A stretch of DNA of 64,000 nt from the sequence record PZ386971.1. The stretch is one strand, 5' to 3'. Shown one piece after another: positions 1,261 to 60,565 of this stretch. A program made the translations under genes and the position numbers. Numbering within the stretch: the stretch's first letter is position 1; every line of letters begins with the position of its first letter. Source of the DNA: a phage. Below the pieces are notes generated by a model that saw only the letters and a program-made list of their open reading frames with translations, was not told where the DNA came from and ran no database searches.

Positions 1261-1319
1261 TTCTATAACTTTGGGCGGGGTATGATTACCCCGTCTATTT
1301 GAAATGCAGGAACTATACC

Positions 1320-1826
1320 ATGACCGATCAACAAATTCAAGATTTATTTTACCTCGTCCATGATAAGTCCCACATCATGCGCCCCGGTACTGTTTCCCCT
1401 GCCGTCCGTGATCTGGTGCAAGAATTGCGCGAACCACAGACGACCACACTTTATCGCGGGTTGCCTAAAGAGGACGTTGCGCGTTTAGAGATGATGTTTG
1501 AACGAGGCGACATGTTCCAGACATGGGATTCTTGCCTTAGCTTCAGTGAACTGAAGCATGTGGCCAAAAAATTTTCTAAATCGTACGGAACCCAAGCTGT
1601 TGCCCGCATTTGTTACAAACATCGAAACAGACTCCCGGAGGGGCTTAATGTCTATGGTTCTCTAGAAAAATTTGTGAACAAAGGCGATGAATCAGAAATG
1701 GATATGCTGGACTTGGCGTCCATGGAGAAAGAATGGATATTCTGCCAGCCTCGCGTCATACCAGTTTCAAGAAAAATGGCAACAGACGGCACGATGGTTT
1801 TTACCGTATCACTTGTTACCCTATAA
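1320..1826 (+). CDS. putative mono-ADP-ribosyltransferase-like early protein (R-S-ExE signature: LYRG ... SCLSFS ... MEKEW)
   Basis: Track ORF begins at TTG 1299; real ATG at 1320 after conserved leader AGGAACTATACCATG; motif order resembles ART toxins and T4 ModA/ModB. Confidence 0.35.
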   Translation: MTDQQIQDLFYLVHDKSHIMRPGTVSPAVRDLVQELREPQTTTLYRGLPKEDVARLEMMFERGDMFQTWDSCLSFSELKHVAKKFSKSYGTQAVARICYKHRNRLPEGLNVYGSLEKFVNKGDESEMDMLDLASMEKEWIFCQPRVIPVSRKMATDGTMVFTVSLVTL

Positions 1827-5180: not shown

Positions 5181-5236
5181 TCAATAACCTCGGGCGGCTT
5201 ATCATAAAGCTGCCCTTTCATTTGAGAGACTATATC

Positions 5237-5899
5237 ATGGAAAAACTTTATTCTATTATCGTCGGTCCTGATCCTGACGGATTATTCTTCGCCTCGTTGT
5301 CTTATATTGCCCACGCCCGTATCGGTAGCTATTACGCATATTGCACACGTGGCCACGACGGTTCCAATATCCTCCATTATAGCCGCCTGAACGATTTCCT
5401 GGCACTTCAACCAGAAGATGTTGTGCTGGCGCGTCGCGTGTTCATCGACTTCAACGCGATGCACAACAACGAAATCGACGCTCGCTACCATGCCATGCGT
5501 TCTATGGACGGGGGAGATTGCATTTATCGTATCGACCATTTTAGTGAGTTTACCGAATGTATTGATTGGTTTATCTCTGATAAAGTGATGGGTGAAAGAA
5601 TCGTCACAACTCCGTGGGCACATGCGGAACAACTTCGTGTGTCTACCGATGCGTACAAAGAAGTCGACAATCTGTGCAACAAGTTCCGCATCTCGGTGAC
5701 CTGTAATCAAGACCTGGGCGAAGAGATACAATGGACAGCTGAGTCTCCTCATTTCAGTGGCCTGGTGATGACGGCCGAAACCCGTTCCCGTGCTGTTGTC
5801 CAGTTAGTACTCTGGGCGTTCTACCAGCGCACCCCGTTCTCGTACATGGGGCAGAAAGAGATTGATGAACTCCTGAAGTCTCACGCGGTGGAGGTGTAA
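5237..5899 (+). CDS. hypothetical protein (220 aa)
   Basis: ATG after conserved leader GAGACTATATCATG. Confidence 0.5.
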   Translation: MEKLYSIIVGPDPDGLFFASLSYIAHARIGSYYAYCTRGHDGSNILHYSRLNDFLALQPEDVVLARRVFIDFNAMHNNEIDARYHAMRSMDGGDCIYRIDHFSEFTECIDWFISDKVMGERIVTTPWAHAEQLRVSTDAYKEVDNLCNKFRISVTCNQDLGEEIQWTAESPHFSGLVMTAETRSRAVVQLVLWAFYQRTPFSYMGQKEIDELLKSHAVEV

Positions 5900-5900
5900 T

Positions 5901-6179
5901 ATGGCTGGCGTATGGTGTGATGTCTTGCTGGTTCGTTACAGCGTAAATGGGTGTGTCCAAGTGCGTTCCGCCTTCTATCCAGTACCGTTCTCTTCCGGTG
6001 GCCTGACGGTTCAGCGAGTTCTCGATATTGAGGCAGAACTGAACAAAAAGTCTTTTGGTGTACAAGTCCTGGGGTACGATCTTCTGAATGAAATGATGGT
6101 TGAAGAAGACAAAGTTGAGACTGTCATTGGTCGTCAGGAGATGGAATCGTTAATCTCCAAATCGGAGGTCAAATCATGA
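5901..6179 (+). CDS. hypothetical protein (92 aa)
   Basis: ATG with GGAGG RBS. Confidence 0.45.
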   Translation: MAGVWCDVLLVRYSVNGCVQVRSAFYPVPFSSGGLTVQRVLDIEAELNKKSFGVQVLGYDLLNEMMVEEDKVETVIGRQEMESLISKSEVKS

Positions 6180-6427
6180 GTCCCAACATGGCAATAATCT
6201 GGGTTGGTGAATCGTCAATGCGTTGTCCTCACAAGACGATCACCTTCTTGGACGATGAGCGCCTGGCCGAACAACGGGTTGAAGTCCGCGAAATGCAGGT
6301 TTCTTCAAAGGTGGTGAACGTTCCTGTGACTAATATTCAGACTTTTAAGCCTTGCGTCAGAGTGATTTGTGAACGCTGTGGATGTTATGGCACGATGACG
6401 ACTGAAGACGTGGCGAAAGGCTATTAA
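6176..6427 (+). CDS. hypothetical Cys-containing small protein (83 aa)
   Basis: ATGA coupling to upstream gene. Confidence 0.4.
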   Translation: MSPNMAIIWVGESSMRCPHKTITFLDDERLAEQRVEVREMQVSSKVVNVPVTNIQTFKPCVRVICERCGCYGTMTTEDVAKGY

Positions 6428-9991: not shown

Positions 9992-10783
9992 ATGGGAATG
10001 AACTTCGTGGACAGAGGGGAGAATGTCGTCAAATATTTCACGGACGAAGACAACGAGCGTGTCATTAGTATCCTTCGTGATTGGATCCCCGCCCGCAAGA
10101 AAGCACTTGCTGAGGGCACCAGGCTTCCAAAGATCCCCAACTATGTTGCTCTGCAGGTCCAGCGCATCATCACCAAGATGAGTACCCGCTACAACTATCG
10201 CGACTATCCCTTCCGTGAAGACATGGTCTCTGAAGCAATAGTCAACATCCTGCGCTACCTCCACACCTTTGACGTCGAACACATTGGAAAGAAAGGGAAG
10301 ATCAACTTCTTCTCTTGGGTGACCATGTGCGCTGATCGATCATTCGCTCGTAAACTGAATATCGAAGAAGAACACACGTACATCAAATTGCGCTCATTTG
10401 AAGAGGCGGGTGGGTTCGCAGGCCTGGCAGACGATCCCGACTTCCAACAAGAGATCTTTGTTGACGCGACAGGGATTGGTATGGACTTCCGTGAGCGTAT
10501 CGGTAACTTTGAGAACAAAAAGGACGCTCAAAGGCAGAAGGAGCGAGAGAAGGTGGAGGCGGCTCGTCTCGCAGAATCGAATAAAAAGATTGCGAAAGGC
10601 ATACTTCAATACATGGCGCAGGCTAAGAATACGGTAACAGCGCAGGCCGAAGACAATTCAGATCAGGACTTTGGCAAAACCCAATTCAATCTGGAAGATG
10701 ATATCTGTGCGATGGAACCAGATTGGGAAGCCCTCAAACAAAGATTAGAAGAACGGGAGAAAAAGAATAATGGCGATTGCTAA
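9992..10783 (+). CDS. late-transcription sigma factor, T4 gp55-like, with C-terminal charged extension
   Basis: Block-wise similarity to recalled T4 gp55 (ILRDW, RYLHTFD, NFFSWVTMCADRSF). Confidence 0.6.
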   Translation: MGMNFVDRGENVVKYFTDEDNERVISILRDWIPARKKALAEGTRLPKIPNYVALQVQRIITKMSTRYNYRDYPFREDMVSEAIVNILRYLHTFDVEHIGKKGKINFFSWVTMCADRSFARKLNIEEEHTYIKLRSFEEAGGFAGLADDPDFQQEIFVDATGIGMDFRERIGNFENKKDAQRQKEREKVEAARLAESNKKIAKGILQYMAQAKNTVTAQAEDNSDQDFGKTQFNLEDDICAMEPDWEALKQRLEEREKKNNGDC

Positions 10784-15080: not shown

Positions 15081-15695
15081 ATGACGATGACAACGTTGAA
15101 GGCCATGGCCTTGTCCGTGACCTTTACCATTGCCAGCGGGAATGTGCACGCTTCCCAAAATACAAGTCAATGTGTTTATGATTTCTCTGAGCAACAACTT
15201 AATACGATGGCAACCGCCTATCACGTAGGCAAGACACAAGATCTTGGCTACACTCTGGCCGCCATATCTTGGCGAGAGAGCCGCGCTGGTGAAGATGTAG
15301 TGTCAATGCGATACGGCCTCAAGGCGGCCAACATGGGAGCCTTCCAGAACAAGGTGAAGACAGTTGGTGATCGCGAAGGTTGTAAGAATCGCAAGTGCTA
15401 TGCCAATGTCGCCATAAAGTTGCTGACCGACCAAGAATATGCCGCGCAAGCCGCCCTCGATGAGATACAGTTCTGGCTGACCTATCACAATCAGAATATC
15501 CGCAAATCCCTCTCCTCTTACAATGCTGGCTTCGCCCGTAATCCCGCATCGAACGCTTATGCTGCTGACGTCGTGAAGAAAGCTAAATATCTTCAGAAAT
15601 GTGTGTCTTTCGAAGGCCGGACCATCTCCGAGGTAGATCCTCAGGTGATCGCCATGAACAAGCACACAATAGAGAAACTGAAGAGGACAAGATAA
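15081..15695 (+). CDS. periplasmic lytic transglycosylase (SLT domain) with signal peptide
   Basis: Signal peptide; SLT motifs SWRESRAG, GAFQ, YNAGFAR. Confidence 0.6.
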   Translation: MTMTTLKAMALSVTFTIASGNVHASQNTSQCVYDFSEQQLNTMATAYHVGKTQDLGYTLAAISWRESRAGEDVVSMRYGLKAANMGAFQNKVKTVGDREGCKNRKCYANVAIKLLTDQEYAAQAALDEIQFWLTYHNQNIRKSLSSYNAGFARNPASNAYAADVVKKAKYLQKCVSFEGRTISEVDPQVIAMNKHTIEKLKRTR

Positions 15696-16333: not shown

Positions 16334-16362
16334 AATAATTCAATAAAAGGGGCTTTTGCCCC

Positions 16363-16391
16363 TTTACTTCTTCAATATCCTTCCCTATACT
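16363..16391 (+). promoter_or_regulatory. early promoter TTTACT-N17-TATACT
   Basis: Promoter family member after hairpin AAAGGGGC ... GCCCCTTT. Confidence 0.5.
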
Positions 16392-16439
16392 TCATTCCAT
16401 AAGCAACACAACACCAACTTGAAAAGCAGGAACTACACC

Positions 16440-16715
16440 ATGAAAATTATCCTCGACGCATATATCCGCCACGGTCAGAAATACCTGATGGCCAAGGTTT
16501 ACGACGGCGAAGAATTGATCCACGCCCAGACCGCCCCAGCTGCCCAGCTGCGAGAAATCATGTCACGCGACTTCCCTGGTGTTGAAATGGTAGAGCCTAC
16601 CAACCAGGCCGAAGTAGACAAAGAGTGGGAGCGCGAATGGAGTCCAGCGGCTATCGCTCGGGCTGAAAAGAATTGGTCTAACCGCGAAAACGCAAACCGC
16701 CCTTTCCGCCGTTAA
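16440..16715 (+). CDS. hypothetical early protein (91 aa)
   Basis: ATG after conserved leader AGGAACTACACCATG. Confidence 0.45.
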   Translation: MKIILDAYIRHGQKYLMAKVYDGEELIHAQTAPAAQLREIMSRDFPGVEMVEPTNQAEVDKEWEREWSPAAIARAEKNWSNRENANRPFRR

Positions 16716-16737
16716 TTTGAACCGAAGGAACTATATC

Positions 16738-17073
16738 ATGACACAACTCAAGAACTTCACCGCCGATGACATGTTTGCCTTCCAGGGTGCTGAGCACTTT
16801 GCTGACGGCTCCGTACCTCGCATCTACTACTTCTCCGACGAAGAAATGGAAGATTTCTTCGCCCTGATGGAAAAGGACTACGAACCAGACGACTTCGTTT
16901 ATATCATCCATCACGCCGAAGGACTGACATTGGGCTGGACGGCCAACAATGAACCAGAAGAAGTAAACTTCCCTGAAGGTATCATGTCAGAGCGCGTCGA
17001 ATATCTACTGGAAGCCCTGGACCCCCACACCCTCCCGCTCTGGGCGATGTCTGTAGCCCAAGTTCAAAAATAA
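16738..17073 (+). CDS. acidic small protein (111 aa)
   Basis: ATG after conserved leader AGGAACTATATCATGAC. Confidence 0.45.
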   Translation: MTQLKNFTADDMFAFQGAEHFADGSVPRIYYFSDEEMEDFFALMEKDYEPDDFVYIIHHAEGLTLGWTANNEPEEVNFPEGIMSERVEYLLEALDPHTLPLWAMSVAQVQK

Positions 17074-17148: not shown

Positions 17149-20133
17149 ATGTCAAAGCCAAGTTTCCTCCAGTTCATGCAGGAAAGAGATCAGTTGGACG
17201 AAGCGTTCAACTCCGCTCCGTATGAGCTGACCATGGGTAAGAAGAACGCAGGCGATGTGTTCTTCACCTTCGTCGACGAAGATGATAAGGAATACCGCAT
17301 TCAGTTCTATACTCCTCAGGGACTGGGCAAGAGCGTTCGTCAGGTTTTCATCGGCCAGAAGCGCGGCTCCGTCTATCCTGACGCCATCGCTCGCTTCAAG
17401 AACCCAATGCGCGTTATTGCTTCCATGATCGAAGCGACCAAACAATTCATGGCGACTCCTCTGGGCAAAACTATCGATGGCTATGCTGTCAACTTCTCGA
17501 AGAAAGCGCTGGATCGCGGTATGACCCTGATTCCTAAGATCATCCGCCAGTCCGGTCTGAAGCAGAAACTGAATGTCATGGACCTGACCTACGCGCCTGT
17601 CCCTGACCGTGGTTATGTGTGGCTAGTTCGTAAGGGCAAAGATCCGGCTCAGGTATTCGACGGTCCGAAGATGCAGGGTATCACCTGGGATGATCCAGAC
17701 AAGGTCGGTGACGTTCCGGTTCAGAACAATACTCCGGATGTGGGTGTGTCATCTTCTGTTGATAATTCCAACGGATGGAAATTAACTTCAAACGGGGATC
17801 AGCCCATGTTGATATGGGCTGGTAAGGAGAGAGGCCGCACGAATACGGCAAATATCGCTCCCCACTACAATGAGCCGGGCGTGTATGTTGGCGCATACAT
17901 GAATGAGAAACCTGTGCGTGGGCAAAGTGCTGATTTCATTGCTCGTCAGTTGAAATTACCACAAGTCCCTATCAGTATCCTGAATGATTTCACCACGGCG
18001 TCCACAAAATTTTGGAAAGGTTCTCAACAGAAATCTGCGCCTGTTGTGCCGGCAGGTTCGGACAGAAATAACCCAGCCAACATTATCGGTTCTGGAACTG
18101 CTGTTATTGATGCCAAACGGCTTGGTGCTCAGGAAGTAAACGTGGAACGATTCAAAAACGGCGTTCGCATGCGTTCTCGAAACGGTGACGTCGACATCAG
18201 TATTTCTGACCCAGACTTTTCAAATGCAGCAAGTGCGGCTGATGCTGCCACAGCCTCTGTTGTGGTCAAGAACGGGCGTTACGAAGGTGCCATCAATTCA
18301 AAGCGCAAGATTGCCCGCACCTCGAACGAGCAGGGTACTGAATGGGATATTATCGGCGTCAACGGGGAAATCCTTGTCTCTATCAAGTTGAACAAAGTGT
18401 CTAAATCCACATCAGATTCGACCGAGGGTGCAACCAGTGTTGATCAATTACGTGACAGCGGTTTCATCGCTCGTGTTCTGGGTATCATTGATACCAACGT
18501 TGGGCTGGACACTTCTATTCTTCCTGGTGAAAACATCCGTCGCGTGGGCGCTGGTCGTTACACGACGACAGGCGGGTTGGTTATCGTTGTCAACTTCACA
18601 AACGTCCTCGCTGGTTTCGTTCAATACTCAGTTTTCAGCGAAATTGCTGAAGAGGAGAACGTGGCCAAAGGTAGCGCCCGTGACGTCGCCAAGGCGGTAA
18701 TTGCGTCCATCTTTGAGGTTGCTAAGACCCAGTACACTGGCAAATGGGAAATTAGCGCAGTGCCAACAAGCGCTCCATATCCTATCAAAGCCATTCGCCG
18801 TTCTCGGGGCTGGGGTTATGTGGAAACCGCAAACTGGACTCTGACAGTGTCCGACGCTGTCCTGAATCGTGTGAAGCCAGGGAACACTGCTCTGCTGGAA
18901 CTCATCAAAGAGCCTCCGCGTGGCAAGCACCTGCTGGAAATCATCCCAGAGAAGGGCGACAAGACCCTGATGCTGAAAGATCGTATTACCGGGGCCATCT
19001 ATGGTTCTATCGACCTGAATGCCCAAGGCGCTGATCTGGTCAACTCTGGAACCCTGAAGATACCAAGCAACGCCATGGTGTTTGGTGAGACTGTCAACGG
19101 TATGTCCATTCGGTGGGATGTCAATTTCCCCGAAACGGGAAAATACGCCGGTACTTCTATGATAACCAACGTGACCTATTACTACGACAAAGGTAAAGTT
19201 GCATTCACCCCAATTGTCTCTCAGAAAGGGCGTACCCTGAACAATCCGAAGACATATGAACTTCCTTTAAACAAAGATATGGTCCAGAGTGTGATTGATG
19301 AGATTTCATCAAAAATGGTATATCTTTCCAGAAACCTCCAACAGTTGAAAAGTCAGTCATACAACCCAAACCAGGTGTTCTTGAACGATATAACCATCAC
19401 GGATAAAGGTGAAGTGATTTGGAATGATTACAACTTGTCTGACGGCAAAGTTACACAAATTATGCTGTCCATGATAAGCGCAGAAAATAAACGCCTGGAG
19501 AAAGTAGCAAACACGCCGGATATCAATATCACATTGCCCAAGAAACAAGCTGAAGTGGTAGAATTTATAAACCGGATGATCGACATCGATCTCACCCCTT
19601 ATGTGAGAACCCCCAAAAAACGTGATGTGGTATTATTTGACTCTTCTGAATTGTCGATAAACCAACTCAACAACATAGAACGCCTGGGAAGAGAAACAGG
19701 AAAATGGTCTCTTCAGCCAAACGGTGGTATGGGTCATGCACTACTTCTGAAAAGCACGTCGCACAATCCGAAGGACGACCTTGCGGCATACGCCGACTCC
19801 ATTCGCGACAACGCACCAAAAGGTCGCGACCTGGATTGGCAGATCTATGCAAGCCGTGATGGTCAGACTCTGAACGTGGACTGGGATATCACCTTCCGCC
19901 GCAACACAACTGAAGGGGCATATCGCGAGTTCAAAGCTCAGATTGACCGCGCCAACCAGTACCTGCAGACACTGTACCGGGATGCGAAGTCCAAGGGTTA
20001 CAACCCGACTGAACCAAACCTGATGACTCTGGCTCGCGCCCAGCAGTCTGACCAGTGGTCACAAGACAACGGGGAAAGCGCATACAGCGAGTACGAGCAG
20101 TCCCTGGGTGGCAACATGCAGATTAAGATCTGA
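17149..20133 (+). CDS. large hypothetical protein (994 aa)
   Basis: Long uninterrupted ORF; no recognisable catalytic motifs. Confidence 0.6.
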   Translation: MSKPSFLQFMQERDQLDEAFNSAPYELTMGKKNAGDVFFTFVDEDDKEYRIQFYTPQGLGKSVRQVFIGQKRGSVYPDAIARFKNPMRVIASMIEATKQFMATPLGKTIDGYAVNFSKKALDRGMTLIPKIIRQSGLKQKLNVMDLTYAPVPDRGYVWLVRKGKDPAQVFDGPKMQGITWDDPDKVGDVPVQNNTPDVGVSSSVDNSNGWKLTSNGDQPMLIWAGKERGRTNTANIAPHYNEPGVYVGAYMNEKPVRGQSADFIARQLKLPQVPISILNDFTTASTKFWKGSQQKSAPVVPAGSDRNNPANIIGSGTAVIDAKRLGAQEVNVERFKNGVRMRSRNGDVDISISDPDFSNAASAADAATASVVVKNGRYEGAINSKRKIARTSNEQGTEWDIIGVNGEILVSIKLNKVSKSTSDSTEGATSVDQLRDSGFIARVLGIIDTNVGLDTSILPGENIRRVGAGRYTTTGGLVIVVNFTNVLAGFVQYSVFSEIAEEENVAKGSARDVAKAVIASIFEVAKTQYTGKWEISAVPTSAPYPIKAIRRSRGWGYVETANWTLTVSDAVLNRVKPGNTALLELIKEPPRGKHLLEIIPEKGDKTLMLKDRITGAIYGSIDLNAQGADLVNSGTLKIPSNAMVFGETVNGMSIRWDVNFPETGKYAGTSMITNVTYYYDKGKVAFTPIVSQKGRTLNNPKTYELPLNKDMVQSVIDEISSKMVYLSRNLQQLKSQSYNPNQVFLNDITITDKGEVIWNDYNLSDGKVTQIMLSMISAENKRLEKVANTPDINITLPKKQAEVVEFINRMIDIDLTPYVRTPKKRDVVLFDSSELSINQLNNIERLGRETGKWSLQPNGGMGHALLLKSTSHNPKDDLAAYADSIRDNAPKGRDLDWQIYASRDGQTLNVDWDITFRRNTTEGAYREFKAQIDRANQYLQTLYRDAKSKGYNPTEPNLMTLARAQQSDQWSQDNGESAYSEYEQSLGGNMQIKI

Positions 20134-20189: not shown

Positions 20190-20759
20190 ATGAAACCGTT
20201 TATCGAATATTTTAAAGAACAAGCCGCTAAACCTCAGACCCATGCTGGTGTCCAGGGTAAGACCGTATCCATCACCAAGCAAGCTGACGGCACCCAGTGG
20301 TGTTCCGGCGCTACCGTGACCCAGATCACCCCTGACAATCAGGCGGATGTCTACAACCTGGAGTTAACCAACGGCAACACTATCAAGGTGAAGCTGACTC
20401 CGGATCAGACCCATGGCATTACCCAAGGCCAGGAAGTTGTTGCTGTCCATGACGGTTTCGAATTCTTCTTTGGCAAGTCTGCCGACAAAGGCCAGGTGAC
20501 CGAATCCTATGCTCAGGAACTGGCGAACATGGACAAGATGATCGGTAAAGCACTGGGTGCTGGCAAGTCTCGCAAGAGTGGTCGTACTGAGTTTGAATAC
20601 TCTGGCATCCCTGGCATCGGCAAGGCGATCACCGTGAACTTCGGTGGTGAAGATGACCCGTATGTGATCGTCACCTGCAACGGCAAGGAGCATGATATCA
20701 GCAAGGGTAAAAACCTGGCTGCTGACATTGCCAAGTTCCTCGGTGTTAAGCCTGTCTAG
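20190..20759 (+). CDS. hypothetical late protein (189 aa)
   Basis: ATG with GAGGAG RBS; late promoter upstream. Confidence 0.55.
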   Translation: MKPFIEYFKEQAAKPQTHAGVQGKTVSITKQADGTQWCSGATVTQITPDNQADVYNLELTNGNTIKVKLTPDQTHGITQGQEVVAVHDGFEFFFGKSADKGQVTESYAQELANMDKMIGKALGAGKSRKSGRTEFEYSGIPGIGKAITVNFGGEDDPYVIVTCNGKEHDISKGKNLAADIAKFLGVKPV

Positions 20760-20808
20760 AAGGTTGCACTAGACGACGCCACGGCGAAAGAACTTGGTCT
20801 GTAACTGG

Positions 20809-21206: not shown

Positions 21207-21267
21207 TCTATAGATCTATCTGATAATATAATTGCCCATTATTTGTCAATCATAGATAAGGATAAAG

Positions 21268-21876
21268 ATGGGCAAGATCTTCGTTCCAACACATTTAGAA
21301 GGCTGTCAAATTGCAGCCAAATATCTTCACAAGCAGATGAATTGCGGTGCCGTATTTATCGAACCGAATCCTCACACCAATTCTGAATCCCCTGATGCAA
21401 TCGGGTTTCGCCCCGATGGGTGCAGTATTTTGATCGAGGTCAAAATCAGCCGGGATGATTTCCGAGCAGATGCTAAGAAACCTCATCGCATCAATCCTGA
21501 GCAGGGGATGGGCAGCTATCGTTTTTATGCATGTCCTGAGGGAGTCATCCGCATTGAAGATCTACCACCAAAGTGGGGGTTGTTCTACTTCACGCCTCGA
21601 AAATCATTGAAGGCGATCCATGTCCCCGACATGAAGATATCTTCCCTGTATTCCCCTCAGCACTATCTGAATATGATAGCCTGCCGAGGCCAGAATGGCA
21701 AGATGCCTCCTTATCTCCTCCATTACCAAAAGATGGTGGAAGACTTCGGCCATGTCGTAAAGAACACCGTCGCTGAACACAATGTCCTCTATGGGGCTTG
21801 GCGTCAGCTCTGTATTGCTCAAACCCGTGGTGTGGCATATACTGTCAATGAGGTATTCCAGAGGCCCGCGATTTAA
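21268..21876 (+). CDS. PD-(D/E)xK nuclease-fold protein
   Basis: Motif SPDAIGF ... ILIEVK. Confidence 0.4.
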   Translation: MGKIFVPTHLEGCQIAAKYLHKQMNCGAVFIEPNPHTNSESPDAIGFRPDGCSILIEVKISRDDFRADAKKPHRINPEQGMGSYRFYACPEGVIRIEDLPPKWGLFYFTPRKSLKAIHVPDMKISSLYSPQHYLNMIACRGQNGKMPPYLLHYQKMVEDFGHVVKNTVAEHNVLYGAWRQLCIAQTRGVAYTVNEVFQRPAI

Positions 21877-21886
21877 GAGGTGTACT

Positions 21887-22171
21887 ATGTCATTAGCAGC
21901 ATACAACAAAGAATTTTCAGAAATAAATTATGACTTCTTGTTTGCGAGTGAGCGCCGATTTGTACAGGCGAATGAATATTTGGAAAACCACGGTATGGAA
22001 TCCAGATATGAAAATATATTGAACATGCAAGCGGCCATGGCGACGACTGAACTTGGGGCTGACAGTTATGAAGCCAAAGCATATTCTCGTCTTACCCATT
22101 ATGATCAGACCATGGTAGAAAAATATAAATCTATCCTTTCTCAGAACGGGTGGGTAAATGAAATTTCTTGA
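21887..22171 (+). CDS. hypothetical protein (94 aa)
   Basis: ATG with AAGAGG RBS; track ORF started upstream at an alternative codon. Confidence 0.4.
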   Translation: MSLAAYNKEFSEINYDFLFASERRFVQANEYLENHGMESRYENILNMQAAMATTELGADSYEAKAYSRLTHYDQTMVEKYKSILSQNGWVNEIS

Positions 22172-23516: not shown

Positions 23517-23545
23517 TTTACTCTTCAATAATAGCGCACTATTAT
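23517..23545 (+). promoter_or_regulatory. strong early promoter TTTACT-N17-TATTAT with AT-rich UP-like region
   Basis: Promoter family member preceded by 40 nt of A/T. Confidence 0.55.
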
Positions 23546-23617
23546 AATCACATAGGGCGGCAACACACCGCCGAATGAAAAGTGAAACGAACCAACTACA
23601 TTATGAGGAATTACATC

Positions 23618-24106
23618 ATGGCTACTACCAAAACTCTGATCACCAACGGCACCATCTCTTTCGAACTGAACACCGAAGTTGCTAAAGTTGAAATGTTCCG
23701 CATCGCTCAAGCAGCTGGCTTCACTGGTGGCAAAACTTCCTTCATGAACCTGCTGAACGGTAAAGTGAAAGCGACTAACGGCTTCACCCTGGTAGAGCAG
23801 GTTGTGGTTGATAAAGCTGTGGTTGCTAAGACTGCCGACAAAGTTGGTATGCTGAAAAACCTGGGCCACGACATTCACATTGTCGAAGCGAAGACCGAAA
23901 CTTACGGCACCATCGTAGTCGGTAAAGGTCGCATCCAGCTGAACCCACTGAACAACGGTTCCTTCTCTGTGATGGTCTTCCCTAAGAAGGGATACGACAA
24001 CACCGACATCGTGAAAGCTGCTGGCGGCGAAGCAAAAGCTCAGTACGTCAAAATGGGTAAACTGAGCGCCGACGCAGTTGAAGATCTGGTGAGCAAACTG
24101 GCCTAA
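23618..24106 (+). CDS. abundant hypothetical protein (162 aa), highly codon-optimised
   Basis: ATG with GAGGAA RBS; strong promoter; optimal codons. Confidence 0.6.
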   Translation: MATTKTLITNGTISFELNTEVAKVEMFRIAQAAGFTGGKTSFMNLLNGKVKATNGFTLVEQVVVDKAVVAKTADKVGMLKNLGHDIHIVEAKTETYGTIVVGKGRIQLNPLNNGSFSVMVFPKKGYDNTDIVKAAGGEAKAQYVKMGKLSADAVEDLVSKLA

Positions 24107-24251
24107 TCCAGACGTGTAACATAGGGGAGGCAACTCCCCCTATCAGGTCTTGGGAGGAGATCACAGTCATTCAATCCTCTTTGGTGCTCTCTGGGTTGCT
24201 GACACATCCAGAACAAAGTCTCCCCCAGCTCCTCGAGTAGTTCACTTTCAC

Positions 24252-28394: not shown

Positions 28395-28463
28395 ATTGGT
28401 CTAAACCTACTACCGTTATATCATCAGGGGTGAGAGATCACCCCTATTCATCAGGAGTTCTAT

Positions 28464-28757
28464 ATGTTCCAAACGTTATTGTTAGTCCCTGGCCAACCAG
28501 GTATCTTGCTCGAACACAACAGCAAAATGGAAGCGGAGAATGTTCTGCGCAACGTGAAGGTGGCCACTGCTTGGCACAACGGCGGCGAAGTCACGGCTAT
28601 CCCGTTGAACTACACGGATCCAATGGATACTGTGAACCGTACTCACATCCTTCTAGACCTCAGCAAATTACCTGCAGACAAACGCCGGGATTTTGTTGTT
28701 AACATCAAGAATTACATTACCACCGAACAGATCAAACTCCACGAAGGCAAGGCATAA
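28464..28757 (+). CDS. hypothetical protein between nrdA and nrdB (97 aa)
   Basis: ATG after hairpin GGGGTGA ... TCACCCC; stop 1 nt before nrdB start. Confidence 0.45.
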   Translation: MFQTLLLVPGQPGILLEHNSKMEAENVLRNVKVATAWHNGGEVTAIPLNYTDPMDTVNRTHILLDLSKLPADKRRDFVVNIKNYITTEQIKLHEGKA

Positions 28758-30102: not shown

Positions 30103-30151
30103 AAAGCCCCTCATTGAGGGGCTTTACTTCTATAATCCCTGCGCTTATACT
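30103..30151 (+). promoter_or_regulatory. terminator hairpin (AGCCCCTC ... GAGGGGCT) fused to early promoter TTTACT-N17-TATACT
   Basis: Same cassette architecture as at 549-612. Confidence 0.55.
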
Positions 30152-30202
30152 TCCCAGTAATTCATTGGCATTCGCCACAAATTGAACAGCAGGAACTATA
30201 TC

Positions 30203-30442
30203 ATGACCGACTCTGAAGTCTACGACACCTCAATGAAATACCACGCCATGACAGCCAAACGCGGCTGTGCTGCTAACAAGGCATATTGGATAGGTGAACT
30301 CAGAACCCTCCGCGCCGTGGTCAACCACGAAATCATTATGAATCACGACAACAACGGTCAAGGTAAAGACCGAGAAGAATTGAAGGTTGCTCGTGAACGT
30401 CTTCGCTTTGGTCTGACCAAAGCCCTTGAATATGTGAAATAA
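30203..30442 (+). CDS. hypothetical early protein (80 aa)
   Basis: ATG after conserved leader AGGAACTATATCATGAC. Confidence 0.45.
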   Translation: MTDSEVYDTSMKYHAMTAKRGCAANKAYWIGELRTLRAVVNHEIIMNHDNNGQGKDREELKVARERLRFGLTKALEYVK

Positions 30443-30453
30443 GGAACTATATC

Positions 30454-30915
30454 ATGACAAACAAAGTACTCACCAACCCACTGCACAACTTCGGTTACAT
30501 TCAACTCCCTCTGGTGATCGACACCCTGTACGCCGACGACAAAGAAGAGATCTGCTGGTCACCCACCGCACTGATTGAACGCGAAATCTTCAAGTCTGTT
30601 GTTGATGTCATGTTCCGTATCGGTCGCAATGGACCTCTGGTCTACCTCGGCAAGGTGACTGAGTTGAAGACAAGCCACAACGAACGCTTCCTTCGTATCG
30701 ATACAACGGGGTGCTCTCATCAGGACTTCAACACATTGCGCAATTATGTTCTGGTCAACCGCCCGGTCAGTCAACACCGCCCGTATCTGACGTCAATGCA
30801 CATCGACAATTTCATCACCGACGTACACCTCCGCGCCGAAACCCTCCATGAAGAGGAAACAGGCCGAGCTATCGACACAGTCTTAAATATGGTTGTGATC
30901 ACCCTGGCGGAGTAG
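30454..30915 (+). CDS. hypothetical early protein (153 aa)
   Basis: ATG after conserved leader. Confidence 0.5.
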   Translation: MTNKVLTNPLHNFGYIQLPLVIDTLYADDKEEICWSPTALIEREIFKSVVDVMFRIGRNGPLVYLGKVTELKTSHNERFLRIDTTGCSHQDFNTLRNYVLVNRPVSQHRPYLTSMHIDNFITDVHLRAETLHEEETGRAIDTVLNMVVITLAE

Positions 30916-30920
30916 TCCTC

Positions 30921-31271
30921 ATGCAAGATTACAAAGAGTTGAGAATGCAGCTGGCAGTCCCCATACCAGACAAAGGTTTATACCAGAACCTGCATCATCT
31001 GATGTCTGAAGGGCATATGCTGCCCTTGCGGTCTGAGGATGGATCTCAGATCGGTTATGCCACCAGTTGCGTGGTCTACGACAAACCAGGAGACGAAGAG
31101 CGCGGAAAGGTCAGTGTGGGTTCCAGATTTGTGTTGAACAAGAAGCTGGAGGGATCAGTGGTTGACGTCAGGCCGATGATTATCCTCTACCAATTCAACG
31201 GCAAAGAAATGTTCAGGTTATTGAGCCACTTCATGTTAGTCGTGGCTCCGGCATTCAGGACGAAATTCTAA
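30921..31271 (+). CDS. hypothetical protein (116 aa)
   Basis: ATG with GGAG RBS. Confidence 0.4.
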   Translation: MQDYKELRMQLAVPIPDKGLYQNLHHLMSEGHMLPLRSEDGSQIGYATSCVVYDKPGDEERGKVSVGSRFVLNKKLEGSVVDVRPMIILYQFNGKEMFRLLSHFMLVVAPAFRTKF

Positions 31272-49329: not shown

Positions 49330-49360
49330 AACACCAAGAAGCCCAGTCAAGTACTGGGCT
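49330..49360 (+). terminator. rho-independent terminator (AGCCCAGT ... ACTGGGCT TTTT)
   Basis: Perfect stem plus T run. Confidence 0.7.
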
Positions 49361-49376
49361 TTTTAACTTCAATAAC

Positions 49377-49405
49377 TTTACTTTCAAGAAATAATCGCCT
49401 AATAT
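49377..49405 (+). promoter_or_regulatory. early promoter TTTACT-N17-TAATAT
   Basis: Promoter family member. Confidence 0.5.
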
Positions 49406-49436
49406 TTAATCTGTATTGAAGAGTTACAACTACATC

Positions 49437-50642
49437 ATGAGGCTGGAAATGAACGTCAAAACATTCAATATTCCGATCGACAATGAAGGGTTGGTAGTTG
49501 AGCGACTGAAGAAGCTCGAGCGCACTGCCGAAAGGTTGGGTGTTCCGTTTCCGACTGTGACTTATGGTGAACCCTTCAAAACCCACACCCGCGACTTCAC
49601 TGGTGAGATCCTTACTCACTGGTGGAAACCTGTTACTCTCGAAGGCGAAGGCATTGACCGCCCCGTCTCTTATGGTGGCTGGAAGATCATCGGTCAGTTC
49701 AATCACGAATATCCAAAGGTTATTCTTAACCGCCTGTCCGACAACATCAATCCTGACTTCATCCGTCACTTCGAGACAGAGAACGTCTCTTGGTGTCAGC
49801 ATTGCAATCTAGTCATCCGTCGCAAGAACACGTATGTGATTGAAAATGAGGAAACGCATACCCAGATGCTGATTGGTAGCACCTGTATGCATCATTATGT
49901 GCCTCATCAGAAGTCCCTTGACGCGATTATGTCTTACTATCTGGAAATCCAAGAGTTCTTCATGCCAGACGAGGACGACCCAGAGGGTATATATCGCGTC
50001 CAAAATGAGCGCTTCGTCGACACCCACAGTTTCCTGCGCGCATGCTTCCAGGTGATGCTAGCAGGCGTGGATATCAAGTCTGAACTGTTTGACAAAGTAC
50101 TGGGCTATGTCCGGTCTCATCAGAAACCAAAAGCAGGTTCCGATGAAGAGTATTTCGTAAACAAGGCACACGAATACCGTGAAGATGCCGAGTCGGAAAT
50201 GTACCATATGAAGCTTTTCATCAGTGCGCTGTCCGAATCTAATGAGTTCAATGTTCGCCTGAAACGCATGTGTGAACCCGGCTATCACCTCATCAAGGAT
50301 AACAACACAGTCCGCTGGGGTGCCAAGAAGTATTACGATTACATCCATCGTCCTCGTACTGACCGCAAGGCGGAGAACAAATGGGTGGGTGAAGTCGGTG
50401 AAATGCTGGAAGTGCAAGTCAGGTTCGACAAGCGCACCTTCCTCTTCTCCAATGAATATGGTGATAGCTACCTGTTTACTTTCAAAACAGCAGAAGGCAA
50501 TACAATTACCTGGAAGACCTCTTATATGGATACAGAGTTCTTGCAGGGTGATATGATCATCCGTGGTCGTGTTAAAGAACTGACTGAGTACAACGGCGTT
50601 AAACAAACTCAGGTCACCAGAGCTAAATTGAGGAAGTTATGA
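49437..50642 (+). CDS. hypothetical protein (401 aa) with Cys/His cluster
   Basis: ATG after conserved leader ACTACATCATG; CQHC ... CMHH. Confidence 0.5.
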   Translation: MRLEMNVKTFNIPIDNEGLVVERLKKLERTAERLGVPFPTVTYGEPFKTHTRDFTGEILTHWWKPVTLEGEGIDRPVSYGGWKIIGQFNHEYPKVILNRLSDNINPDFIRHFETENVSWCQHCNLVIRRKNTYVIENEETHTQMLIGSTCMHHYVPHQKSLDAIMSYYLEIQEFFMPDEDDPEGIYRVQNERFVDTHSFLRACFQVMLAGVDIKSELFDKVLGYVRSHQKPKAGSDEEYFVNKAHEYREDAESEMYHMKLFISALSESNEFNVRLKRMCEPGYHLIKDNNTVRWGAKKYYDYIHRPRTDRKAENKWVGEVGEMLEVQVRFDKRTFLFSNEYGDSYLFTFKTAEGNTITWKTSYMDTEFLQGDMIIRGRVKELTEYNGVKQTQVTRAKLRKL

Positions 50643-60515: not shown

Positions 60516-60526
60516 GGTCTCAGCCC

Positions 60527-60557
60527 TTAAATAGATAGAGTGTTATGGCTATTTAGG
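60527..60557. promoter_or_regulatory. divergent late promoter pair (TTAAATAGAT plus strand; CCTAAATAGCC minus strand)
   Basis: TAAATAG cores 30-40 nt upstream of divergent ATGs at 60566 and 60515. Confidence 0.45.
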
Positions 60558-60565
60558 ACTAGATT

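Follow-up and report, generated by a model that had tools for sequence, protein, structure and literature searches.

A repeated start-site motif in an Agtrevirus-like Ackermannviridae genome as the probable ribosome-binding end of a composite early-gene cassette

The stretch of DNA analyzed here (the window) comprises 64,000 nt of sequence record PZ386971.1, with the genome type of Agtrevirus-like Ackermannviridae, and our subject is a short motif that recurs within it at the starts of unrelated genes. Megablast analysis of the first 8 kb returned Ackermannviridae of the subfamily Aglimvirinae; the top match was Escherichia phage vB_EcoM-ZQ1 (hereafter, ZQ1; 96.5% identity), followed by Shigella phage Ag3, AV101, and others. 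The window is antiparallel to the ZQ1 record, and it carries replication genes, nucleotide-metabolism genes, and many small genes, mainly on the + strand.

A reading of the letters alone (hereafter, the original prediction) had described a conserved 17-nt translation-initiation leader shared by several early genes and often preceded by ATTTGAA. We find that the full motif unit spans ~25-29 nt and reads TTGAA-N4-AGGAAC-TAYAYY-ATG-AC. The window holds 11 copies, at ATGs 662, 1021, 1320, 1879, 5237, 16440, 16738, 23603, 30203, 30454, and 49437; each ends at an ATG that opens an open reading frame (ORF), with PHROG profiles aligned from residue 1. By our arithmetic from the coordinates, the copies cover ~0.4% of the window. 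They are as follows, with SD denoting a Shine-Dalgarno sequence.

644-666, + strand: weak motif copy, TGAAAGAAGGTATACATT-ATG, opening gene 662-886
ATG 676, + strand: second TATATCATG, out of frame, 14 nt 3' of the weak copy at 644-666
1002-1025, + strand: motif copy, TGAAAGGTAAGATTATATC-ATG, opening gene 1021-1260
1300-1324, + strand: motif copy, TGAAATGCAGGAACTATACC-ATGAC, index case of the original prediction, at the start of the ADP-ribosylase-like gene 1320-1826
1859-1883, + strand: motif copy, TGAAACCAAGAGACTATATC-ATG, opening gene 1879-2256
5223-5241, + strand: shortened motif copy, TGAGAGACTATATC-ATG, opening gene 5237-5899
16420-16444, + strand: motif copy opening gene 16440-16715 and forming the left junction of a 298-nt unit absent in ZQ1
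16718-16742, + strand: bare intercistronic motif copy opening gene 16738-17073 and forming the right junction of the 298-nt deletion
23583-23622, + strand: SD-less motif copy, TGAAACGAACCAACTACATT-ATG (23603), stacked on AGGAATTACATC-ATG (23618)
30183-30207, + strand: motif copy opening gene 30203-30442 and forming the left junction of a 251-nt unit absent in ZQ1, LIMEstone1, and others
30435-30458, + strand: bare intercistronic motif copy opening gene 30454-30915 and forming the right junction of the 251-nt unit
49417-49441, + strand: SD-less motif copy, TGAAGAGTTACAACTACATC-ATGAGG

The repetition is real and nonrandom. At up to three mismatches, AGGAACTATATCATGAC has eight matches in the window, every one on the + strand, versus 0.15 expected from shuffles, and none of 100 shuffled windows reached eight. 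Likewise, the 10-nt core CTATATCATG has 12 matches at up to one mismatch (3.1 expected), and TAYAYYATG has 15 occurrences on the + strand but only two on the - strand, against a chance level of ~2 per strand that we estimate from the degeneracy of the pattern. In a repeat search of the window, the motif was the largest direct-repeat family; the search extended it to the 29-nt sequence (A/T)ATTTGAA(A/C)NNNAGGAACTATATCATGAC, TTGAA box included, which bears out the upstream ATTTGAA.

The near-identity ascribed to the listed starts holds in part. Copies are present at all of them, but the exact 17-mer occurs only at 16726, 30191, and 30442. The copy at 1308-1324 has the spacer TATACC and the copy at 16428 the spacer TACACC, and AGAGAC replaces AGGAAC in the copies at 1867 and 5225. 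The copies designated as weaker (1021, 23618, and 49437) are also present, with the qualifications that the 23618 site consists of two stacked versions (ATGs 23603 and 23618) and that the copies at 23603 and 49437 retain AACTACATYATG without an SD sequence. ATG 23618 is probably the true start rather than 23603, and the true start at the 49437 locus is probably ATG 49449. The weak copy at gene 662 is additional to those listed. A further copy had been placed away from any start at 28420; there, TTATATCAT (28412-28420) precedes ATC rather than ATG and has none of the upstream motif. A single 9-mer match of this kind is near the chance level (~0.5 by our estimate), and we treated it as unrelated.

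The proteins encoded behind the window copies are 74-220 aa long and belong to eight different PHROG families, seven of which are of unknown function. Similarity between the motif genes ends past codon 2-3, which agrees with the proposal that the encoded proteins are unrelated and that conservation acts at the nucleotide level rather than on coding.

We used the window copies to build a position weight matrix for searches of related genomes. This analysis identified ~12 matches in the whole ZQ1 genome and ~9 strong matches in CBA120, which belongs to another subfamily (Cvivirinae); all were sense to genes, and nearly all ended on an annotated start codon. LIMEstone1 also has the motif. Within IMG/VR, exact 17-mer matches that include the TTGAA part fell exclusively on Ackermannviridae-like contigs, and the degenerate pattern occurred in 1-7 copies per contig of 141-164 kb among the matches listed. 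Other IMG/VR contigs carry the 17-mer outside Ackermannviridae; these matches lack the TTGAA part, look like chance combinations of SD and ATG, and were rejected. A motif search of this kind, across the genome and related phages, was one of the checks proposed with the original prediction, and it finds the motif enriched at gene starts both within the genome and across the family. An Rfam search of the window at gathering thresholds gave no match.

As a translation-initiation region (TIR), the motif consists of the SD sequence AAGGA, an 8-nt spacer of A, U, and C, and then ATG. Motif TIRs are less structured than the other called TIRs of the window (mean minimum free energy, -3.4 vs -7.5 kcal/mol; p=0.001) and more accessible (0.58 vs 0.46). 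Among the examined orthologs and paralogs, spacer differences are pyrimidine transitions (TAYAYY) and the A positions are fixed, a pattern that, as far as sequence comparison goes, suggests constraint. Late structural genes (major capsid, scaffold, portal, gp15, gp6, and tail spike) also frequently have ATC directly ahead of ATG, and this ATC occupies positions -3 to -1 at 7 of 68 non-motif window starts versus a trinucleotide frequency of 2%. Because ATC is also frequent at these late genes, its presence appears to point to a genome-wide phage preference at -3 to -1. The motif as a whole is found only at early-type genes and is absent from late genes, including the highly expressed ones.

An AAGGA-type SD sequence with an 8-nt A/T/C spacer and an upstream A/U-rich element is a pattern tied to very efficient initiation. 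The leader of phage T7 gene 10 (AAGAAGGAGATATACATATG), which serves as the ribosome-binding site of pET vectors, has these features: an AAGGA-type SD sequence, an 8-nt alternating A/T/C spacer (ATATACAT, compared with ACTATATC or TATACATT here), and an A/U-rich element a few bases upstream. It differs in belonging to a single late gene and in being neither a repeated nor a recombining element. We attach almost no probability to the idea that the motif pairs with 16S rRNA beyond the anti-SD sequence, or with a phage antisense RNA. The ordinary SD pairing of AAGGA, and nothing more, speaks for extended pairing; the best duplex with Escherichia coli 16S rRNA reaches -10.7 kcal/mol versus a shuffled mean of -11.9, and the strong complements in the ZQ1 genome are only the opposite strands of the motif sites themselves, the next best being -18.6 against a shuffled range of -17.7 to -20.1.

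The sequence upstream of the motif is also patterned. In six window copies, the motif ATG lies 31-57 nt downstream of TTTACT-N17-TAT(T/A)(A/C)T or its TAATAT version, and most of these six promoters follow a G+C-rich hairpin with a T-tract that reaches into the -35 element. The original prediction had placed the motif on the TIRs of early genes, and the motif genes do look early because they lie directly downstream of these sigma70-like promoters. At three other copies (1320, 1879, and 5237), the motif follows a strong hairpin with the -10-like sequence TATGAT or TATCAT in its loop; orthologous hairpins in other phages have TATTAT or TATAAT in the loop. The copies at 16738 and 30454 are bare and intercistronic. 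The promoters and hairpins are as follows.

584-612, + strand: predicted sigma70-like early promoter, TTTACT-N17-TATTAT, after the terminator hairpin at 548-567; full cassette, gene 662
941-969, + strand: predicted sigma70-like early promoter, TTTACT-N17-TATTAT, after the terminator hairpin at 904-923; full cassette, gene 1021
1274-1295, + strand: hairpin GGCGGGGTATGATTACCCCGTC, loop TATGAT; with the motif, the 50-nt left repeat of the slot that holds an ADP-ribosylase-like gene, denV, or nothing
1833-1854, + strand: hairpin identical to that at 1274-1295; right repeat of the same slot
5192-5215, + strand: hairpin GGGCGGCTTATCATAAAGCTGCCC, loop TATCAT, immediately 5' of the motif copy at 5223
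16363-16391, + strand: predicted early promoter, TTTACT-N17-TATACT, with its -35 element overlapped by the terminator hairpin at 16345-16365
23517-23545, + strand: predicted early promoter, TTTACT-N17-TATTAT, 5' of the motif copy at 23583
30123-30151, + strand: predicted early promoter, TTTACT-N17-TATACT, with its -35 element abutted by the terminator hairpin at 30104-30124
49377-49405, + strand: predicted early promoter, TTTACT-N17-TAATAT, after the hairpin at 49342-49358

A whole genome has 8-11 sites of the TTTACT-N17-TAYWMT type, of which 5-6 have a strong motif no more than 80 nt away. In an alignment of 10 relatives at gene 16440, hairpin, promoter, leader, and motif are all conserved. 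Five ZQ1 copies beyond the window (135771, 125041, 91938, 79019, and 16199 in ZQ1) have near-identical blocks in common, namely TTTACTTCTTCAATAA (TTTACTTCTATAAT at 79019), the -10 box, and TTGAA...AGGAACTATATC; several also have a leader of the CATAAGCAG(T/C)ACGACAC type, and the promoter spacers differ. Because promoter, hairpin, and leader blocks recur in this way around motif copies, we read the unit as a cassette of ~100 nt, of which the original prediction had seen the 3' end. The leader of gene 1021 (986-1006) contains a five-codon upstream ORF, ATGGGTTCACCGGGTTGA, whose stop codon is the TGA of the TTGAA box and which is conserved in PC3, ZQ1, and CBA120. A role for that TGA as the stop codon of an upstream ORF or of a preceding gene was considered and rejected, as it is seen in single cases only (the gene 1021 leader and the LIMEstone1 denV stop).

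The motif could itself be a DNA-level promoter element, with TATATC serving as the -10 box on the sense strand or with its complement TGATATAGT serving as an extended -10 box on the antisense strand. A consensus scan gave antisense promoter-like matches over the copies at 1021 and 1320, and TGnTATAGT is near an extended -10 element. On the sense strand, however, the gap between TTGAA and TATATC is only 9-10 nt, there is no -35 element 17 nt upstream, and the start would fall within the ORF. On the antisense strand, many copies read TACA, including four strong CBA120 copies, which turns the essential A2 of the -10 hexamer to G. The fixed register to ATG favors a translational role, and we regard a promoter function of the motif as very improbable.

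To account for the conservation, the original prediction had pointed to a shared RNA-level signal, either an operator for a RegA-like translational repressor or a RegB-like processing site, and as it stood this reading is not supported. A RegA homolog, or another phage RNA-binding protein, could bind the SD-spacer-AUG region of early mRNAs and jointly shut off their translation later in infection, a role that can coexist with a cassette. ZQ1 and CBA120 encode a RegA homolog beside the clamp-loader genes and the gene 62 homolog (PF01818, E=2e-34; 43% identical to T4 RegA), and regA in the relatives lies ~7 kb upstream of the position of the window's left end. This homolog retains T18, R21, and W81 of the RNA-binding residues given in PMC3014915, whereas K14 and F106 are not conserved. 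The operators of T4 RegA lie over or directly beside the AUG in prereplicative genes, and the motif resembles them as a short, unstructured, A+U-rich stretch on or next to AUG; the core persists even at copies that lack an SD sequence, and its restriction to early-type genes and absence from late genes fit a repressor of early translation. The T4 sites, however, show no clear sequence conservation and carry a 5' poly(A) tract (Uzan and Miller 2010, PMC3014915), whereas the motif is nearly invariant, contains C, and is unlike AAAAUUGUUAUGUAA; by direct reading, the 12 bases AACUAUAUCAUG are A or U at nine positions, and the motif has no poly(A) tract. The ZQ1 orthologs of T4 RegA targets (regA itself, 44, 45, 62, rIIA, rIIB, and dexA) lack the motif in their TIRs, and an RNA operator at AUG leaves unexplained why the conservation continues across the promoter, ~70-100 nt upstream. 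We therefore keep a regulatory role, as a RegA-like or other operator, as a possible but unlikely one.

The other form of this idea, in which a RegB-like or other endoribonuclease would cut in the SD region and inactivate early mRNAs, is highly unlikely. The motif does occupy the SD region of early-gene TIRs, in parallel with T4 RegB sites, and one relative, ZQ1, annotates a "putative RegB." RegB requires GGAG/U, and the T4 RegB/S1 site in early-gene SD regions is GG*AGRAYARAA (PMC3014915, PMC1702504). The motif reads GGAA or AGAGAC, lacks GGAG/U, and does not fit GGAGRAYARAA. No RegB homolog was detected: based on Pfam analysis, the ZQ1 protein has no RegB domain and a weak SLT-domain hit; it has no solved-structure match, and its CBA120 counterpart is described as Vs.1-like. 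Within the window, the C-terminal part of the ORF at 15081-15695 corresponds to the ZQ1 "putative RegB," and PHROGs assigns it unknown function; the RegB label looks like an annotation error.

Comparison with relatives places the motif at sites of gene exchange. All three tandem copy pairs in the window flank a gene that is absent or replaced in relatives. Based on BLAST alignment of the window with ZQ1, gene 16440-16715 is missing from ZQ1, and the blocks flanking 16444-16713 overlap on ZQ1 by 28 nt, which is the motif; the leader of gene 16440 is thereby joined in ZQ1 to the ORF of gene 16738, with the switch within AGGAACTA. Gene 30203-30442 is absent from ZQ1, LIMEstone1, and three other contigs, where its promoter-leader is fused at the motif to gene 30454, and the flanking BLAST blocks overlap by 24 nt on ZQ1. 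The copy at gene 30454 is lineage specific because the CBA120 ortholog of that gene has an ordinary AGGAG TIR, different from that of the window.

At the third pair, we constructed in silico the junction predicted from the 50-nt repeats at 1274 and 1833 and looked for it in phage sequences. It was found as one uninterrupted 322-nt piece, at 96-98% identity, in nine phages (PC3, PH4, A221, YX22, LHE287, RPN242, CAU_YEP3, Marshall, and Maynard), in which the slot is empty. The slot holds an ADP-ribosylase-like gene in ZQ1, AV101, and MK-13, and it holds denV, opening with the same GCAGGAACTATATC-ATGACC, in LIMEstone-like Dickeya phages, P46FS4, and EspM4VN. The slot that follows the ADP-ribosylase-like gene contains a different gene in CBA120. 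Gene 662-886, together with its own hairpin and promoter, is absent in PC3 and LIMEstone1, with the junction within the repeated cassette.

In two cassettes common to ZQ1 and CBA120, the last 70 nt compared upstream of ATG match at all or all but one of the positions, and ATG and the following 5-6 nt also match (ATGGCAATC and ATGACAAC). The encoded proteins, however, have no significant blastp match to each other and are unrelated, each being restricted to its own genome. Such exchange explains why the second codon belongs to the conserved string. In total, we identified four presence/absence cases and three cargo replacements with junctions inside the repeats, and two of the nine breakpoints between the window and ZQ1 are motif-to-motif deletions. 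Loss, gain, and replacement of genes at the repeats are thus what the comparative data record, and from this we infer recombination as the mechanism.

Promoter-early stem-loops (PeSLs) are mobile regulatory cassettes of the T4-type phages RB49/phi1, T4/PST, and KVP40/nt-1 (PMC2839356, PMC4122927). Their stem-loops lie just 5' of a sigma70-like promoter with the T4/PST consensus TTTACW-N17-TAYWAT (Comeau et al. 2014, PMC4122927); in RB49, the stem-loop overlaps the -10 box, and the mapped crossovers fell in the interval from the -10 box to the ATG or SD sequence (Arbiol et al. 2010, PMC2839356). Excised mini-circles and measured promoter and terminator activity are further features of PeSLs. 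The cassette described here, as read from its sequence, is likewise a composite of stem-loop or terminator, sigma70-like early promoter, SD sequence, and start codon. It shares the T4/PST promoter consensus, some of its copies have the stem-loop over the -10 box as in RB49, numerous dispersed copies precede small, non-core genes of mostly unknown function, and copies mark junctions at which close relatives differ by deletion, insertion, or replacement. It differs in its host family, Ackermannviridae, and in its most conserved and most often recombining module, which is the leader-SD-spacer-ATG segment of 24-29 nt; this module is nearly invariant, continues into codons 2-3, and also occurs solitary between cistrons, with neither promoter nor hairpin. 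Our literature search returned no paper that combines "PeSLs" with any Ackermannviridae term. Sigma70-like and late promoters are given in the genome papers of AG3 and LIMEstone, but this motif is not; the words promoter, transcriptome, translation, and regulatory are all absent from a 2024 review of Ackermannviridae, and we found nothing relevant on Ackermannviridae transcriptomics or earlier descriptions of the motif in the literature searched.

Based on these comparisons, the motif is probably the ribosome-binding 3' end of a repeated composite early-gene cassette, equivalent to a PeSL, that doubles as a crossover site for gene exchange. The full cassette would open with a terminator hairpin, followed by a sigma70-like early promoter (TTTACT-N17-TAYWMT), then by a leader of ~30-55 nt that terminates in TTGAA-N4-AGGAAC-TAYAYY, and finally by ATG with one or two further codons; shortened cassettes would comprise either the motif behind a hairpin that has a -10-like loop or the motif by itself. 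At the RNA level, the cassette may provide early genes with a uniform, unstructured ribosome-binding site. At the DNA level, its repeats of 24-50 nt may act as homology patches, such that recombination between two copies would delete, insert, or replace the intervening gene. As the exchange would be in register with the start codon, an incoming gene would be expressed at once. The nucleotide identity between unrelated genes is, in this explanation, a matter of common cassette ancestry, exchange, and start-site constraint; it would follow from cassette copying and recombination and therefore does not require a dedicated operator.

Several points weigh against the PeSL-like cassette. The literature searched contained no transcription or translation data for these phages, so early status, promoter activity, and TIR strength are predictions. 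The motif is far more uniform than the SD-ATG ends reported for PeSLs. It persists without an SD sequence at 23603 and 49437, which ribosome binding alone does not explain, and the ATG of the CBA120 copy of the 49437 type is out of frame with the annotated start; the SD-less copies could mean that the motif has an additional role, for example in binding a protein or as a target of recombination. Its absence from highly expressed late genes means that it is not simply the best TIR of the phage. Finally, repeats of 24-29 nt are short for general homologous recombination, although the PeSL authors cite homology patches of <50 bp as sufficient in T4. A more specialized version, which we consider very unlikely, is that the hairpin and the core TTGAA-N4-AGGAAC-TAYAYY-ATG form the specific target of a dedicated phage recombinase or endonuclease, with integron-like capture and expression of start-codon-registered early-gene cassettes. 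If that were true, recognition by a protein would account both for the persistence of SD-less core copies and for how little the core varies.

If the PeSL-like cassette is the correct reading, it offers a first sketch of early-gene control signals for Ackermannviridae, phages widely used in biocontrol and diagnostics, and it would mean that PeSL-type cassette shuffling operates beyond the classical T4-like phages. It would also explain how small accessory early genes, such as the ADP-ribosylase-like gene and denV, are swapped while their neighbors are undisturbed. In practice, the motif could serve as a marker of early genes and natural insertion slots and as a ready-made expression signal for engineering these phages.

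Several minor observations concern cassette-like sequences. Tandem TAYAYYATG pairs, 14-15 nt apart, occur at 662-678 and 23603-23620, with ATG 676 opening an ORF of only three codons; these pairs are possibly scars of slipped cassette recombination. TATAAT-type hexamers also lie in the loop or stem of strong hairpins at window positions 37383, 42380, 48618, and 52811 (in addition to 1281, 1840, and 5200). One example, CGGGGTATAATTACCCCG, is 74 nt upstream of the gp32 gene, and others precede genes 42416, 48656, and 52846 (ligase). These hairpin-embedded hexamers look like a second class of combined terminator and promoter, similar to the RB49-type PeSL. In ZQ1, the annotated start of the gene 44 homolog (clamp-loader large subunit; 10700-10760) has no SD sequence; TATAAT, a hairpin, and CTATTTGAA precede the ATG, with CTATTTGAA directly abutting it, and the string of hairpin plus TATTTGAA is also found at window positions 1274-1304.

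Other differences between the window and ZQ1 are not bounded by the motif. A 97-aa ORF at 28464-28757 (no Pfam hit), located between nrdA and nrdB and absent from ZQ1, lies in an insertion at 28457-28755, whose insertion point falls between the nrdB SD region and the nrdB ATG; this insertion is start-site registered and lacks the motif. The remaining indels or replacements without motif boundaries are at 6146-6399, 17747-17769, 20500-20808, 21213-22156, 24221-24239, and 30964-31225. Pfam analysis of the genes at these sites found nothing, including for the ORFs at 21268-21876 and 21887-22171, which are present in the window only. In the divergent intergenic regions at ~39446-39498 and 60516-60565, between late structural genes, strings resembling T4 late promoters (TATAAATA and CTAAATAG) occur on both strands.

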